A stretch of 64,000 nt of DNA from positions 7,392,001 through 7,456,000 of the forward strand of contig CAVUSO010000001.1 in assembly GCA_963744145.1 (NCBI GenBank). Direction: 5' to 3'. Shown here one piece after another: positions 1,523 through 63,640 of this stretch; position 1 is the first letter of the stretch, and every line of letters begins with the position of its first letter. The DNA is from an uncultured cyanobacterium. Lineage in GTDB: Bacteria > Cyanobacteriota > Cyanobacteriia > Cyanobacteriales > CAWUOF01. Both the position numbers and the translations under genes were made by a program. The notes under the pieces were generated by a model, which had not been told where the DNA came from, did not search any database, and worked only from the letters and a program-made list of their open reading frames with translations.

Positions 1523-1845
1523 AATTAAGTACCTCGTCAACTAAATATTTGTACCAGTTCAGCGATCGCGGCTTCCCTGGAAAACGTTCATAAGTTATTC
1601 ACTTTGATGAGCTTAAAAGTGATTATAGCAAATAAATCAAGGATTTGGCATCTGACTAGGAAATAAAAAGAGTTATTTTTGGGTCACAGAACTAGGAAAA
1701 ATTGGTGGTTTAATTTCAGTGGGCAAAGAAAATGAGTAATATTACTGATTCTCCTTGCCCATATATCAAAGACTAGCTACCATCTTGTTTACCTAGCTCT
1801 TCTACTTGAGCAACCTTTTTTCTTTTTCAATAAAGAAGATCAATT

Positions 1846-2284
1846 AATCCGGTTCAGTTACTTGTAGGGGCAAAGCATTTCGGCGTATAAATGATTGTTT
1901 AAGCGTTTACCCTGAGTTTACCCTGAGCGTAGTCGAAGCTTGCCCTGAGCGTAGTCGAAGGGGGCGTAGTCGAAGGGAAGAATAATATTACCGAAATGCG
2001 AGAGCCCTCACATTTATGCAACCAACCGATCAACTACATATAGAAAAATCCAATTTAGTTAAAACAAAAATGTTACTTCGGCGATTCCTCCAGAAAAATA
2101 ACCTCACTCATCCGTAATATATAGGTCAATATAGTTCAGCGTAGAAGAAGGGTGAAGCATTCGGGTCTAATGCTACTCCCCTTCGACTACGCCCTTCGGC
2201 TACGCTCAGGGTAAACTCAGGGTAAAACTTCAGTGTTTAATTGTCGCCCGAATGCTTCACCCCTACGCCTAACTGAACCGGATT
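1846..2284. repeat. REP-doublet/MITE-like composite: B hairpin (GTAG at 1864) and inverted A hairpin (CTAC at 2263-2266), bounded by 15-bp inverted repeats
   Basis: AATCCGGTTCAGTTA (1846-1860) and TAACTGAACCGGATT (2270-2284) are exact reverse complements; the hairpins match the 58-62 kb array units; nested 24-nt inserts at 1906-1977 and 2179-2226. Confidence 0.85.
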
Positions 2285-2723
2285 GGAATATAAATTAAAT
2301 AATTCGCTGTAATGAGATCGCTCTGATCGCTTACTCCGAGCCAAATTATCAAGTTATTTAATTGTTATTCCTGAGCTAAATAATCTAGCTAATCTAGAAA
2401 ATTTTTTGACATTAATATGCGTCAATATTAATCAGATTTATTTGCTTTTTTTTTAGAAATAATCAACTATTTAAACCAGCGGATTTTTGACTTAATCTGC
2501 ACCGCCAAAAATTGGGATTAGAAAGAGATCATGTCACTCTATTTATTGGGAAATAAATCATAATACAAATATTTACGAAATCATCACACTGACTAGAAAA
2601 ATCAGATAAAATTATGCTAGAATATTACACCTAAGTCAAATAATTTGGCAAAGATAGACTGGCACAAACCAGATTTTTGCCTGATGGCGAATTTTAACTG
2701 CTGATTTCTGAGTTTAATGGAGC

Positions 2724-13050: not shown

Positions 13051-13264
13051 ATTTTTTGGGGGGCTCGGCGCAGCAGAAGAAGAAGGGCAAAGCATTCGGA
13101 TCTAATATTGCTGCCCTTCGACTACGCTCAGGGTAAAGTTTGATTGTTCAATTGTCGCCCGAATGCTATGCCTCCGGCACGCTGTCGCGAACGCCCCTAC
13201 ATCCTATTGATCTGCTAGCGATCGCTGATTAAATCCCAACAGATCTCGGCGCAGAAGAAGGGCC
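13051..13264 (-). repeat. Dispersed, inverted half-unit of the 58-62 kb array (A hairpin + HIP1 linker) with a 24-nt insert (13114-13137) and an SDR5-like insert (13170-13191)
   Basis: The reverse complement matches the array from TTTAATCAGCGATCGC to CCCCAAAAAAT; fragments of a second unit follow at 13236-13264. Confidence 0.88.
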
Positions 13265-27979: not shown

Positions 27980-28147
27980 CAATACGGTTCAGTTAATTGT
28001 AGGGGCGTTTGCCTACGGCACGCTGCGCGAACGCGTAGCGTGCCGTAGGCATAGCATTCGGGCGACAATTTATAGCTAAAAACTGTACCCTGAGCGTAGT
28101 CGAAGGGCGTTAACATTATATCCGAATGCTTCGCCCTTCTTCGCTAC
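27980..28147 (+). repeat. Dispersed A hairpin with nested SDR5-like inserts (28008-28050) and a 24-nt insert (28084-28107)
   Basis: CAATACGGTTCAGTTAA-tt-GTAGGGGCG...AGCATTCGGGCG...TCCGAATGCTTCGCCCTTC. Confidence 0.88.
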
Positions 28148-57988: not shown

Positions 57989-58395
57989 ATCAAATCAATC
58001 CTAATGAATATTATAGTCCTAAATCAGCAACCCAGATAAGCGATCGCTTGCCGATCAATAGGGTGTAGGGGCGAAGCATTCGGGCGATAATTTACCGCTT
58101 AAACCAGCAATATTAGATCCGAATGCTTCGCCCTTCTTCTGCGCCGAGCTCCCCAAAAATTCTGAACTGAATGGATTGTAATATCTAGTTGATCTGTTGG
58201 CTACATAGATGGCAGGGCAAAGCATTTCGGTAATATTATTTTTCGTTTCAGCAATTATTTATTCGCCGAAATGCTTTGCCCCTACAAGGAACTGAACTGG
58301 ATTGGTATTTAATCACCGATCGGTTGCCGATCAATGGGGTGTAGGGGCGAAGCATTCGGGCGATCATTTATCACTTAAACCAGTTAATATTATAT

Positions 58396-60639
58396 CCCAC
58401 ATTCCGCACCCTGAACTGTCACAATTCGTAATTACTGAAATAAACCTCTATCAAAGCTGAAATTTTGGCCCACTATCGTCAAAAAAGAGGTTTTTAAACC
58501 TTGATGGTCAGGTCATCAATCTCTAGTTTATTAATAATTATTAGCAATAAGTAGAAAATGAGGATTTCGGCCCGTTTTTTCAATAAATTTTGGTGTTGAC
58601 TAGCTCTCTTAACTCAGTTTTGTTAGTTAATAACTGAACAATCTCTAGTTAAGATAGGTTAATTCTTAGCTCTTAATTAAATTCAAGAACTCATTCAAGC
58701 TAAATATATTTATGCTATATTAGCAAGAGGATTAAGTGATAAATTTATAGTAGCGCCGACAATCTTCTGGTAGCAGGGTCAGGATAAATTCACGTTCATT
58801 ACTCCAATTAGATACTTGTTGTTGTTGTTGAAATGTGACCAGGTGAATTGCTTGAAAGCATTGAAATATCCATTTAGCTGTTGGACGGTCTGTTGCTTTC
58901 CCTAACTGATTTTTTATGGTTGATTTTGCTGCTGATAAAGCGGCTCGTATTTGTCTTTGTGCTAGGGTATAAACCAGTAAACCTAGCCCCATAATTGCTG
59001 CTAATGATTCGATGCGTTCGGGACTTTTCAGATAAACACTATCTGCAAAAAATGTGGGATCTTTAAGAAAACCAAATCCTCTTTCACAGGATTGCTGTGC
59101 CTTATACTCAGTCAGCATTGCCTCATTACTAATTTCGCTTTCTGCTAAAACGTTCGTCGCAATTATGAATCTACCTGCACTGTTAGTTTCTTGTTCAATT
59201 TGGCTTTTATCCTCGGTAAAACTGCCGAGAATTTGATAACACTTTTTTTGACTTTTATCTAATTTATCTGGTCTGATTTCCCTGACTTCTTTTGGTTCAA
59301 TTTGATGATATTTAAAGGATTTCGATAGGTGAGTTAATGCCTTGACTGCATCAGCTTTACAGGCAAATCTATCTTGGGATAATTTTCCTAATTCGCTGTT
59401 CAGTTTGGTGGCGGATTTACTAATTTTCTGTGATAATTTCCGTAAATCTGATTCTCTTCTTTCTTGACTTTCCACAACTAGCCATCTTTGCTTTATCCCA
59501 CCATAAGTCTGCTCTTTTGCCGCCCATGAATATCCAACTAATTTGCTTTTAGTAAATTCTGAATCTGGCAAATTTGCTACTAATTCTTGGGCTAATTTTA
59601 TCTTTAACGGTACTCGGCTTAACCACTTAATTTCCGACATTAATTTGAGATTATCTTCTGTATATAAGGCACAATCAGCTACGATTAAACTATCTACTTT
59701 TATTTGATTTTTATAATCAATTGCTATCTTCGCAAAGCATGATGAGTCGGCTTGATTTCCTGACGCTGCTTTTAAAAATATTGGGATATCTCCATCCCCG
59801 GTACATACTAATTCTATTAAAAATTGTTTTAAATCAGGTCTATGGTCACGGGAATAACCGTAATTTATTTTGATTGGTTGTCGCGATTTTATTTGGGGCT
59901 CTCCTTGGTCTGACAATTCTGGCTGACTAAATATTATCTCTGGTAATTCTTGATGATATTCCCCATGTACGTGAATTGACGATGAGTCTAGATGGGATGT
60001 ATTTAAAGATATATCAAACTTTTTAACTGCATTTAAAGTAATTGCTAAAAATATTGTATCCAGTCCTTTACTATATAGTTTATCCATCACTCTTCCCAGT
60101 TTATCGTCATTTAAATATTCGGGCTTTACCCCGGCTCCTATTAAATGTTCACAGGGAATTGATTCAAAAAATTTCGGAAACATATATAATGGTTTAGAAA
60201 TAAATCCTAACCCATTGATAATCATTGCTTTAACTGCTTGTCCAGCAGTAACTTTTTCTCCCGATTCTATCCCGATTAAATTATTAATTATTTCTACTAT
60301 TCCAATCGTATCTACTATTCCTGCTACTAACCCCAGATGGTCGATATTCTGAATTTTAATATCGTTTATGTCTACCATAGTTACCCAATTTAACGAGCCA
60401 ATTTTTGGTTCAATTATCGCATTTTTAGGCTCGATTGCAATTAATTTTTTTACTCTTTCATTTTCCGGACTTCTGCTACGGTTAATCTCTCAATAACCCA
60501 GGGCCTCTTTCTGCTCATAAATCTAGTTTAATAAAATTTATTCTCATTAATCTCATTTATGATCTTTTTGAGCCAACTTTCTTCGTCCCCAATTTTTACC
60601 CTTTTATTAAGATGTGCCAGTGAGGGTGCGGAATGTGGG
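58396..60639 (-). mobile_element. IS1634-family insertion sequence (2244 bp)
   Basis: 17-bp TIRs CCCACATTCCGCACCCT / AGGGTGCGGAATGTGGG; 6-bp TSD TTATAT (58390-58395 and 60640-60645); removing it restores array unit 2. Confidence 0.95.
58732..60378 (-). CDS. IS1634-family transposase
   Basis: IDHLGLVAG, HLDSSS, YGYSRDHRPDLKQ, VADCALY and YKAQQSCERGFGFLK motifs. Confidence 0.95.
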   Translation of the reverse strand: MVDINDIKIQNIDHLGLVAGIVDTIGIVEIINNLIGIESGEKVTAGQAVKAMIINGLGFISKPLYMFPKFFESIPCEHLIGAGVKPEYLNDDKLGRVMDKLYSKGLDTIFLAITLNAVKKFDISLNTSHLDSSSIHVHGEYHQELPEIIFSQPELSDQGEPQIKSRQPIKINYGYSRDHRPDLKQFLIELVCTGDGDIPIFLKAASGNQADSSCFAKIAIDYKNQIKVDSLIVADCALYTEDNLKLMSEIKWLSRVPLKIKLAQELVANLPDSEFTKSKLVGYSWAAKEQTYGGIKQRWLVVESQERRESDLRKLSQKISKSATKLNSELGKLSQDRFACKADAVKALTHLSKSFKYHQIEPKEVREIRPDKLDKSQKKCYQILGSFTEDKSQIEQETNSAGRFIIATNVLAESEISNEAMLTEYKAQQSCERGFGFLKDPTFFADSVYLKSPERIESLAAIMGLGLLVYTLAQRQIRAALSAAKSTIKNQLGKATDRPTAKWIFQCFQAIHLVTFQQQQQVSNWSNEREFILTLLPEDCRRYYKFIT

Positions 60640-62220
60640 TTATATCCGAATGCTTCGCCCTTTTTCTGCGCCGAGCTCCCCAAAAATTCTGAACTGAATG
60701 GATTGTAATATCTAGTTGATCTGTTGGCTACATAGATGGCAGGGCAAAGCATTTCGGTAATATTATTCTTCGTTTCAGCAATTATTTATGCGCCGAAATG
60801 CTTTGCCCCTACGAGGAACTGAACTGGATTGGTATTTAATCAGCGATCGCTTACCGATCAATGGGGTGTAGGGGCGAAGCATTCGGGCGATAATTGAACA
60901 ATCAAACCAGCAATATTAGATCCGAATGCTTCGCCCTTCTTCTGCGCCAGCTCCCCAAAAATTCTGAACTGAATGGATTGTAATATCTAGTTGATCTGTT
61001 GGCTACATAGATGGCAGGGCAAAGCATTTCGGTAATATTATCCTTCGCTTCAGCAATTATTTATGCGCCGAAATGCTTTGCCCCTACGAGGAACTGAACT
61101 GGATTGGTATTTAATCAGCGATCGGTTGCCGATCAATGGGGTGTAGGGGCGAAGCATTCGGGCGATAATTGAACAATCAAACCAGCAATATTAGATCCGA
61201 ATGCTTCGCCCTTCTTCTGCGCCAGCTCCCCAAAAATTCTGAACTGAATGGATTGTAATATCTAGTTGATCTGTTGGCTACATAGATGGCAGGGCAAAGC
61301 ATTTCGGTAATATTATCCTTCGCTTCAGCAATCATTGACGCGCCGAAATGCTTTGCCCCTACGAGGAACTGAACTGGATTGGTATTTAATCAGCGATCGG
61401 TTGCCGATCAATAGGGTGTAGGGGCGAAGCATTCGGGCGATAATTGAACAATCAAACTTTACCCTGAGCGTAGTCGAAGGGCAGCAATATTAGATCCGAA
61501 TGCTTCGCCCTTCTTCTGCGCCGAGCTCCCCAAAAATTCTGAACTGAATGGATTGTAATATCTAGTTGATCTGTTGGCTACATAGATGGCAGGGCAAAGC
61601 ATTTCGGTAATATTATTCTTCCCTTCGACTACGCTCAGGGTAAACGCTTCAGCAATTATTTATTCGCCGAAATGCTTTGCCCCTACGAGGAACTGAACTG
61701 GATTGATATTTAATCAGCGATCGCTAGCAGATCAATCGGGTGTAGGGGCGAAGCATTCGGGCGATAATTTACCGCTTCAACCAGTAATATTAGATCCGAA
61801 TGCTTCGCCCTTCTTCTGCGCCGAAATCCCCAAAAAATTCTTAACTGAATGGATTGTAATATCTAGTTGATCTGTTGGTTGCATAGATGGTGAGGGCAAA
61901 GCATTTCGGTAATATTATCCTTCGCTTTAGCAATTATTTATGCGCCGAAATGCTTTGCCCCTACAAGGAACTGAACTGGATTGGTATTTAATCAGCGATC
62001 GCTTGCCGATCAATCGGATGTAGGGGCGAAGCATTCGGGCGACAATTGAACAATCAAACTTTACCCTGAGCGTAGTCGAAGGGCAGCAATATTATATCCG
62101 AATGCTTCGCCCTTCTTCTGTGCCGAAATCCCCAAAAATATTATAGTTTAAGCAACTAATGAAATGCTGCAAACCTCATTCCTACGTCATCCAATTTTTC
62201 TGAAAAATATTGTTGATCTT

Positions 62221-63640
62221 GGTTCTACCGAACTATCTATGTAAAAATATTAGTTATTAGCTCGTAAAACTCCCAATTAAATAATTAATTTATATCTGAA
62301 AAATTACTGACGTGATTGACTTTGGGCGATTTTTATGTTTAAATTGGATTAGAATAATTAAGTACATCTAAGTAAAAATTGACAGCTATGGCATCTTCTT
62401 CTCAACTTCATCTAATGACTTCATTGCTGAATAGTCAAGAATTTAAAGTAGTAGATTATCAATTTCAAGAAGGGATCGGGATATTTTTACGACTAGAAAA
62501 ACGAGAATTAAAAGTTAAATGTCCTTGTTGTGAAAGCCTCACAGATAAATTACATCAAAATCATTGGTATGTAGTAAGAGATTTGGCTTTTGGTGAACAA
62601 CAAATATATTTAAAAGTCAATCGTCGTCAAATGAGATGTGACCAATGTGGCCACAAATTTAGTGAAGAGTTAAATTTAGTGAAGAAGAAAAGAAATTATA
62701 CTGAAAGATTAAGAAATAAAATTATTAAGGAAGTTTTGTCAAGTGACATAAAAAACGTGGCGATACGGTACGGATTTAGCGAGCAAGAAGTAGAGACAAT
62801 GTTAAAAGAATTAGGCGCAGAATTAATGAAAAAAAAGCCCGAAAATTTACAGCGGTTAGGAATCGATGAAATTGCCGTAGTAAAAGGGCAAAAAAATTAT
62901 TATGTAGTGTTAATAGATCTTGACCAAGGAATTGTATTAGGAATTATCGAAAACCGCAAAAAAGCCGAGATAGAAAAATACCTAGAAGCTTGGGGAGAAG
63001 AGGTTTTGGGGCAAATCCAAGAAGTAAGTATTGACCTCTGGCAAATGTATAAAAATATCGCCGAAAAATTGATACCTCAAGCAGAAGTAATCGCCGATAG
63101 ATTTCATGTAATGAAGCAAGTACAGGATGAACTAGATCAAGAAAGAAGGAAAACGAAAAGAACCGCAGAGCCATTGAAAAATAACCAAAAAAAAGAGCAA
63201 ATATTAGGCGGATTAACTAAGAGTAAATATGTCTTACTTAAAAATGAGAAAGATTTAAATGATGATGAATCTCAACGACTTAAATTAGTTAAAAAAGTTG
63301 CTCCAAAATTAGGAAAAATGCATGAGCTCAAAGAAAAATTTAGAAATATTTATGAGTCCAGTAAAGATTGGGTAGAAGGAATATTTAATTTCGCTGATTG
63401 GTTAAAAGAAGCTCAAGATTATTTCCCTCATAGTTGTGGGACAATTATCCGATGGATTGGAGAAATTATTGCCTATTTCGATCACCGAACTACTCAAGGA
63501 GTAGTCGAAGGAATTAATAATAAGTTAAAATTGATTAAAAGGCGTGGCTATGGCTTTAGGAATTTTGATAATTTTCAGCTCAGAAGTATTTTAACTTGGC
63601 ATTTTGCTAGTTAGTTTTACATAGATAGTTCGGTAGAACC
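62221..63640 (+). mobile_element. ISL3-family insertion sequence (1420 bp)
   Basis: 26-bp perfect TIRs GGTTCTACCGAACTATCTATGTAAAA; 8-bp TSD TTGATCTT (62213-62220 and 63641-63648). Confidence 0.95.
62388..63614 (+). CDS. ISL3-family transposase
   Basis: Zinc finger CPCC/CDQC; LGIDE, SIDL, DRFHV and EGINNKLKLIKRRGYGFRNF motifs. Confidence 0.95.
   Translation: MASSSQLHLMTSLLNSQEFKVVDYQFQEGIGIFLRLEKRELKVKCPCCESLTDKLHQNHWYVVRDLAFGEQQIYLKVNRRQMRCDQCGHKFSEELNLVKKKRNYTERLRNKIIKEVLSSDIKNVAIRYGFSEQEVETMLKELGAELMKKKPENLQRLGIDEIAVVKGQKNYYVVLIDLDQGIVLGIIENRKKAEIEKYLEAWGEEVLGQIQEVSIDLWQMYKNIAEKLIPQAEVIADRFHVMKQVQDELDQERRKTKRTAEPLKNNQKKEQILGGLTKSKYVLLKNEKDLNDDESQRLKLVKKVAPKLGKMHELKEKFRNIYESSKDWVEGIFNFADWLKEAQDYFPHSCGTIIRWIGEIIAYFDHRTTQGVVEGINNKLKLIKRRGYGFRNFDNFQLRSILTWHFAS

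Follow-up and report, generated by a model that had tools for sequence, protein, structure and literature searches.

Introduction

The very small mobile repeats of cyanobacteria known as SDRs are said to have been first defined in Nostoc punctiforme, and Elhai et al. reportedly described in 2008 the families SDR1-8, of 21-27 nt, in this organism and its relatives. Two of these families are said to nest in themselves, with heptamer arrays and mini-transposons as the contexts, and the same authors reportedly proposed an RNA intermediate. To our knowledge, no mover of such repeats has become known since the 2008 description. Elements of the IS200/IS605 and REP/RAYT kind act on single-stranded hairpins and leave no target duplication.

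In PMC5861425, SDRs are summarised as confined to one cyanobacterial subgroup. A second related system is Ssn (Chenal et al. 2025, PMC11893778). According to that paper, single-domain GIY-YIG nucleases bind NTS/SRM hairpins when these are single-stranded DNA and not otherwise, and cleave a few nt upstream, the gene itself sitting between hairpins; many enzyme/hairpin pairs are described, and a likeness to insertion sequences is noted by the authors.

The DNA analysed here, referred to as the window, is a stretch of 64,000 nt from the genome of an uncultured cyanobacterium. It holds several copies of a 24-nt unit with traits of both systems. With SDRs the unit shares a length within the 21-27-nt class, a high copy number, precise presence or absence without target duplication, and nesting in its own copies. 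Like them, it sits in mini-transposon-like repeats and, in a second genome of the order (G038), in heptamer arrays, forms a hairpin with compensatory changes and has no known mover. An earlier sequence-only reading had likened the 24-mer to SDRs and was right in kind. The unit differs from SDRs in that its loop family is found, among the matches listed, in many phyla and in metagenomes rather than in one cyanobacterial subgroup, and in that a candidate protein partner has been identified.

The likeness to Ssn lies in an oriented hairpin repeat of 20-50 nt present in hundreds of copies, in the hairpin-gene-hairpin order around a GIY-YIG gene of ~100 aa, and in paralogues that pair with different hairpins. 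However, the published SRM search pattern matches 0 of the 193 clusters and 0 of the 72 gene-flank hairpins found here. Like REP/REPIN sequences and their RAYT genes (Bertels and Rainey 2011, PMC3116915), these are short hairpin repeats that multiply in a genome and flank one single-copy gene. Single-strand chemistry and the lack of target duplication would be further points in common with REP/RAYT and with IS200/IS605. In contrast to both, the enzyme class here is GIY-YIG rather than HUH/Y1, Y1 genes are unassociated with the loop, and one 24-nt hairpin, able to nest in its own loop, makes up the whole unit.

A literature search with the motif string and the SDR names, covering publications other than the original 2008 SDR description, found none that gives the sequences. 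The loop string is absent from 12 of the 14 supplementary files of PMC11893778, and a term search of the main text of that paper gave no 'nested', 'cyanobacteri', 'Nostoc' or 'Elhai'. The cyanobacterial rows looked up in its genome table show no SRM enrichment. In the same table, 3 of 3 named RefSeq hosts of homologues of our candidate nuclease are flagged as having a cd10448 homologue, a flag set at the level of the host.

Results

Nested 24-nt units in the window

The units of the window and the repeats that hold them are as follows.

1867..2009, plus strand: host hairpin repeat of the 'MITE-B' type, arms GGGGCAAAGCATTTCGG / CCGAAATGC..., with a nest in the loop apex at the bond AAGCG^AAGAA
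1906..1977, plus strand: three nested 24-nt units, outer and middle re-joining to the exact 24-mer, inner with 2 mismatches
2150..2262, minus strand: host hairpin repeat of the 'MITE-A' type, arms GGGTGAAGCATTCGGG / CCCGAATGCTTCACCC, with a double nest at the apex
2179..2226, minus strand: two nested units, outer exact and interrupted at CCCTGAG^CG, inner with 1 mismatch (T17C)
13114..13137, minus strand: one exact unit, located at a MITE-A-type hairpin apex
28084..28107, plus strand: one unit that has 1 mismatch and the prefix TGTA, likewise at a MITE-A-type hairpin apex
60868..62150, plus strand: tandem array of ~275-bp units, each with one MITE-A-type and one MITE-B-type hairpin, the source of filled and empty sites
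61458..61481, plus strand: single exact unit at the bond CAAAC^CAGCAA, which is filled in some array units and empty in others
61621..61644, minus strand: one exact copy, within the second hairpin of the array unit that holds the 61458 copy
62060..62083, plus strand: single exact unit in a later array unit, at a bond identical to that of 61458

The span 1906-1977 is 72 nt long and is the three-deep nest that had first been described from the letters alone. When re-joined by script, the outer unit (1906-1916 plus 1965-1977, interrupted at CCCTGAG^CG) and the middle unit (1917-1938 plus 1963-1964, interrupted at TCGAAG^GG) each give the exact 24-mer. The inner unit (1939-1962) is of the CTTG type and differs at 2 of 24 positions; it had been recognised as a variant, and it belongs in addition to a CTTG subfamily that recurs genome-wide. 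Self-insertion at CTGAG^CGTAG was said to recur at 2179-2226, and an exact outer and a one-mismatch inner unit are indeed found there on the reverse complement. Overall, the window contains 8 matches to the 24-mer at ≤3 mismatches, compared with 0 in 100 shuffles. The nested units are thus confirmed as real and far beyond chance.

Presence and absence of the 24-mer among array units, also claimed earlier, is seen at 61458-61481, 61621-61644 and 62060-62083, and a further exact copy lies at 13114-13137 on the minus strand. The 24-mer occurs in three units of the ~275-bp array and is absent from neighbouring units. Array periods measured by script are 275, 275, 324 and 278 bp, and the value of 324 (276 + 48) bears out the composition of the fifth unit as 276 + 2x24 bp. 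At 61458, filled and empty array units differ by exactly 24 nt with a boundary that allows no shift; there is therefore no target duplication. The earlier statement that no duplication is visible holds for this site, with its fixed boundary, and is less certain at 61621, where the boundary is ambiguous by one G. Array units of this size span 58065-62150, interrupted by a 2.5-kb stretch between 58341 and 60868. Directly 3' of the array, a long open frame at 62388-63613 is bounded by inverted repeats (GGTTCTACCGAACTATCTATGTAAAA...) and by eye resembles the transposase gene of an insertion sequence.

In short contigs of a soil-metagenome run, positions 2144-2266 are covered with 0 differences and 1937-1999 with 2, and no polymorphism is found. 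Half of the words sampled are present in this run, which is possibly the sample of origin; the match is not independent support. No RNA run is listed among those that contain the sequence. The joints reported from the run are other copies of the host repeats. An Rfam search of window 1700-2400 at a permissive threshold returned 9 matches, all far below gathering scores.

Insertion grammar across the genome

The genome comprises 7.70 Mb at 39% GC, and the window occupies positions 7392001-7456000 of the main contig, C1. On this contig GCGATCGC occurs in 7,760 copies, which marks the genome as cyanobacterial. A genome-wide count of the 24-mer, which had been proposed earlier, gives 75 exact copies and 225 at ≤3 substitutions. 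Nested copies were recovered with a parser that excises intact units (4 free bases plus the 20-nt core, ≤1 mismatch), re-joins the flanks and iterates. Six rounds on C1 removed 217, 84, 37, 9, 4 and 1 units, 352 altogether, to which the second contig (C2) adds 3, for a total of 355. As many as 135 intact units on C1 re-form from split halves only after inner units have been removed, and nesting in this genome reaches a maximum depth of six levels. The CTTG-prefix variant is represented by 31 identical copies among the 225 matches and by 81 of the 355 parsed units.

Nested within another unit are 151 units, and they occupy only four bonds of the host unit: 83 follow position 11 (CCCTGAG^CG), 22 position 12, 9 position 13 and 37 position 22 (TCGAAG^GG). 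The enclosed unit has the orientation of the enclosing one in 142 of 142 cases. The landing bonds can be summarised as the family loop after GAG, GAGC or GAGCG, the position after TCGAAG, and the apex of three amplified hairpin repeats. The parsed units form 193 clusters (106 single, 87 multiple), and no half-unit is left after parsing in 151 of them, including 59 of the 87 multi-unit ones. Since the multi-unit clusters comprise 73 distinct sequences, the nests are not one amplified composite. Whole units have been added precisely, in one orientation, without target duplication and at few bonds, and their repeated insertion has produced Russian-doll nests that were then distorted by slippage. 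The repeated, oriented insertion of a tiny unit that had been deduced from the window is upheld by the 135 re-formed units, the uniform orientation and the 151 fully reduced clusters. Of the tiny structured DNA or RNA that had been proposed, the structure stands, and the sequence would fit either kind of molecule.

Unbalanced halves or tandem runs with a 22-nt period are kept in 42 of the 193 clusters and are best read as slippage following nesting. Such runs, made of the CTTG unit minus its last GG and with a single terminal GGGG, are located at C1:2539916-2540022, 4406143-4406214, 5520030-5520147 and elsewhere; they look like slippage between direct repeats made by nesting after position 22. 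Two head-to-tail runs consist of whole 24-nt units: 7-8 units with the TGTA prefix at C1:4345610-4345777 and 4 units with a TCCT stem at C1:5691140-5691235. The former lies within a long open frame, and each copy would therefore add 8 codons. At C1:140206, 6095645 and 7427886, a forward unit with the prefix TTGT sits amid a reverse unit, a cruciform-like arrangement in which two outer bases are seemingly missing.

The clusters avoid genes, with 17 of the 193 inside long open frames as opposed to 73.7% of random placements. A strand bias along the chromosome was not seen (88 plus and 105 minus clusters, even over 12 bins). A G stands immediately before the inserted unit in 248 of the 355 events. 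Unique contexts outside repeats are limited to 12 sites, among them C1:227853, 4074550 and 4938852, and G precedes the insertion in 9 of the 12. The 4-nt prefix was considered as a target guide and rejected: in this genome the CTTG prefix is found in 0 of 83 units after position 11 versus 24 of 37 after position 22, yet CTTG is the commonest prefix at the position-11 bond in G038 and in metagenomes. We read the prefix-bond correlation within this genome as probably lineage history and no rule.

A hairpin with an invariant loop

The 24-mer consists of a 4-base tail and a 20-base hairpin, in which a 4-bp stem, CCCT/AGGG, closes a 12-nt loop, GAGCGNAGYCGA. Within the family the loop is invariant, and the stems vary with covariation. 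In 35 gene-flank hairpins, 84.3% of the cells are paired compared with 58.8% in shuffles and 35-51% in slid controls, and the covariation score of 0.667, compared with 0.215 in shuffles, is reached by 0 of 500 shuffles. The terminal complementarity CCCT...AGGG noticed in the window is thus a real stem, as covariation in relatives attests. The tail has a constant length of 4 nt in the units of this genome and in metagenome composites. The unit does not have the make-up of a classical MITE, terminal inverted repeats plus a target-site duplication: it consists of one hairpin plus a 4-nt tail that is unpaired, and none of the unambiguous sites among the genome insertions inspected has a target duplication.

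Filled and empty host repeats

Outside any other intact unit lie 204 units, mostly at one apex bond of the two hairpin repeats MITE-A and MITE-B. The MITE-A loop is present in 123 genome copies, of which 103 are empty and 20 filled at one bond (15, 4 and 1 with one, two and three units). The MITE-B loop has 120 genome copies, 80 of them empty and 40 filled (20, 10, 7, 1 and 2 with one to five units). The filling is at a single bond in 37 of the 40; the other 3 have 72 excised nt elsewhere in the 34-nt match. A third host repeat, whose own apex is a hairpin of the same loop family, occurs in 32 copies, 22 empty, 7 with one unit and 3 with two. Collecting filled and empty sites, as had been suggested, therefore gives host loops that are either empty or filled at one bond by multiples of 24 nt. 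Because many copies share one fixed bond of amplified hairpin repeats, copy number overstates the independent events, and gene conversion between host copies probably helps the filled state to spread after the first event.

Orthologous pairs of filled and empty sites were not found in a set of 21 genomes (own and 20 relatives), where 105 of 106 matches of the window DNA fall in its own genome; the sole match elsewhere is 29 nt long, in G019 (E 2.7e-4).

Spread of the loop family and of nesting

With one genome per species scanned, the 20-nt core was found in at least 123 loci, compared with ~9 expected by chance by our own arithmetic. Among the matches listed, these loci belong to Acidobacteriota, Bacteroidota, Chloroflexota, Planctomycetota, Patescibacteria, Spirochaetota, Clostridia, Proteobacteria and cyanobacteria, and each has a 4-nt prefix of its own.

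A scan of metagenomes for the position-11 nesting signature gave at least 121 loci. Among the matches listed, 120 loci have enough flank, and 60 of these are canonical nests at TGAG^, with complementary outer stem halves in 56 of the 60 and 36 distinct composites. Also among the matches listed, the CTTG prefix is the commonest at this bond (17 of the 36 distinct composites), the median GC of the contigs is 0.56, and the stems of inner and outer units often differ. The target is therefore the conserved loop, irrespective of stem. Within the order, the nest signature is confined to 2 of 151 genomes, with 50 instances in our genome and 13 in G038. The thirteen composites of G038 are identical, a CTTG-CCCT unit in a CGGT-stem hairpin at GAG^CG, and lie in arrays of 7-8-nt repeats (CCCCGTCT-like).

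A GIY-YIG nuclease gene bracketed by the hairpin

The best PF01541 match of the genome is an intact single-domain GIY-YIG gene of 115 aa, located outside the window at C1:140287-140634 and 58 nt from a nest of 24-mers. The hairpin upstream of the gene has the stem GGGC/GCCC and the family loop, and is filled with the nest; at the 3' end, the last codons run into another family hairpin. Further upstream, at C1:139500-140150, two family hairpins alternate in opposite orientation in a 146-bp tandem array, which is preceded by a run of an 11-nt repeat (CTGAGGACTGAACA-like).

Homologues of the nuclease are patchy, occurring in 17 of 151 genomes of the order, and are yet 70-80% identical across families. 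The loop lies at one or both gene borders in 13 of the 14 non-own homologue loci of the order (E up to 2.5e-17). In this genome, only 0.7% of the sequence is within 100 nt of a loop. The stems at these borders are GGTT/AACC, GGGC/GCCC, CCCT/AGGG, GGAC/GTCC, TAGC/GCTA and others. At the borders of four distant homologue hits in the order the loop is absent. Homologues of 41-46% identity in Flavobacterium, Sphingobium and Aequorivita are bracketed by the same loop, and paralogues in those genomes are bracketed by other hairpin classes. Bracketing of the gene by the loop is thus seen in cyanobacteria, Flavobacteriia and Sphingomonadales, within one nuclease clade. Other GIY-YIG loci have no loop within 1.5 kb (0 of 24, in 10 genomes of which 9 are hairpin-rich). 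The other five PF01541 matches of this genome have none within 600 nt, and flanking hairpins were not seen at the three small ones among them. At E up to 1e-5 the protein family has at least 3,036 members; the best 120 of these are 61-86% identical and include Chloroflexi and Pseudomonadota. An NCBIfam search with the nuclease gave nothing above the cut-off, and its nearest solved structures are UPF0213 proteins.

A close homologue is present in 8 of the 17 genomes of the order with ≥40 loop copies and lacking from the other 9, compared with 6 of the 134 genomes with fewer copies, a tally that is only an indication since related genomes are non-independent. G021 and G075 have the nuclease gene and over 400 hairpins, yet no nest signature. 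With these two genomes, and with the 9 hairpin-rich genomes that lack it, the gene is therefore neither necessary nor sufficient at the genome level. The pairing of hairpin and nuclease is well supported, and by analogy with Ssn the nuclease likely recognises the hairpin; we hypothesise that it also has a catalytic role in insertion.

Discussion

Proposed mechanism

We consider it rather probable that the 24-mer is a small dispersed hairpin repeat which would be recognised as single-stranded DNA by the GIY-YIG nuclease, whose nicks would start the addition of units. The hairpin would serve the enzyme as its recognition site much as NTS/SRM hairpins do for Ssn, and the constant 4-nt tail may mark a cut measured from the stem, given that the cut made by Ssn lies a few nt upstream of the hairpin. 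Nicks made on exposed single strands would then start a copying or re-joining that adds a unit. Against this stands the fact that the characterised relatives cut upstream of the hairpin, whereas the units land in the loop. Moreover, the gene is absent from 9 of 17 hairpin-rich genomes, and the other GIY-YIG genes there are not loop-flanked.

GIY-YIG enzymes hydrolyse DNA, and we know of no strand-joining activity among them. Possible but doubtful, in our estimate, is a reading in which the 24-nt unit is a gene-less passenger of a so far undescribed kind of bacterial mobile element, with a single-domain GIY-YIG nuclease, hydrolytic and acting on single strands, as its driver. Recognition of the invariant loop would let the enzyme make cuts measured 4 nt before the stem, and other family hairpins would then receive whole tail-plus-hairpin units in their exposed loop (GAG^CG). 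A further point against nuclease-initiated unit addition is that Nostoc punctiforme is without an ssnA homologue in the Ssn genome table (PMC11893778).

Alternative explanations

Insertion might need no dedicated enzyme: exposed hairpin loops would be nicked, host repair would add units by template switching at G/GG microhomology, and gene conversion would follow. This we judge unlikely, and just as unlikely that the nuclease gene is a mere host or passenger of the hairpins. The G that precedes insertion in 248 of 355 events and at 9 of 12 unique sites does match the GGG end of the unit, repeated hosts with a single filled bond make up most of the sites, as conversion predicts, and the absence of the gene from 9 of 17 hairpin-rich genomes would be expected; the host-repair and gene-conversion route probably does contribute to spread among repeated hosts. 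However, it leaves unexplained the letter-for-letter conservation of the loop across phyla with varying stems, the constant 4-nt tail, and the bracketing by the loop of 13 of 14 homologue genes as opposed to 0 of 24 other GIY-YIG genes, and the sites AAAC^C and GAGC^G are without G microhomology. Less probable still is that units arise without insertion, as half-unit tandem duplications by slippage, with empty sites as deletions; we give this almost no credence. Whether slippage would better explain the nests had been raised in the sequence-only reading. It does act after nesting, in the 42 of 193 clusters with unbalanced halves or 22-nt runs, and head-to-tail 24-nt arrays exist. However, slippage fails to predict equal left and right halves in mirrored order, with 135 units re-forming and 59 of 87 multi-unit clusters reducing; the prefix and stem of an inner unit differ from those of the outer one; and most host copies are empty while filled ones contain between 1 and 5 units. 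The nesting grammar contradicts slippage as the sole process.

The two remaining alternatives invoke a different enzyme. A small structured RNA copy of the unit could be reverse-transcribed into nicks, which we regard as improbable even though strict orientation and a conserved hairpin suit RNA as well as single-stranded DNA, and G-T (G-U) pairs are present in the stems. The nearest loops to the 3 reverse-transcriptase genes are 18,396, 2,050 and 420 nt away and none of the genes is bracketed; the characterised Ssn enzyme is inactive on RNA (PMC11893778). The link to the nuclease would also favour single-stranded DNA over an RNA intermediate. We consider it very improbable that a Y1 (HUH) transposase, of the IS200/IS605 or REP/RAYT kind, carries the units along as minimal passengers. 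The absence of duplication, the hairpin, the orientation and the fixed left-flank preference do resemble IS200/IS605, and the Y1 gene at C1:4993516-4993887 is flanked by a loop hairpin at 122 nt and, past its other end, by a unit at 477 nt. On the other hand, the loop lies within 1.5 kb of only 2 of 14 Y1 loci (genome background 8.1%), no loop is found within 6 kb of five identical Y1 copies that look active, and the clusters lack a strand bias along the chromosome. The co-occurrence with RAYT, IS200/IS605 TnpA or reverse transcriptase genes that had been suggested earlier is thus not borne out, with 2 of 14 Y1 genes near a loop and 0 of 3 reverse-transcriptase genes bracketed. At C1:4993516-4994050, the loop hairpin 122 nt from the Y1 gene is enclosed by a long palindrome (CTTGTGT...ACACAAG) that also abuts several copies of the third host repeat.

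Significance

The kind of element is already known, an SDR-like, tiny nested repeat with an Ssn-like hairpin/nuclease pair. In the literature consulted, we did not find the combination of one hairpin class, fixed bonds, spread across phyla and a candidate protein. The analysis gives a quantitative insertion rule (four bonds, one orientation and a constant 4-nt tail), and the same rule is evidenced far outside cyanobacteria. It also extends nuclease/hairpin pairs to a hairpin class missed by the published search pattern. For annotation it carries a warning, as units are 8 codons long and 17 of the 193 clusters lie within long open frames. With one small, easily purified candidate protein, the question of the SDR mover becomes accessible at the bench. 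The doubtful reading of the unit as a gene-less passenger of the nuclease would, if true, explain such small nested repeats all the way from cyanobacteria to Acidobacteriota, and with them the way in which SDRs move.
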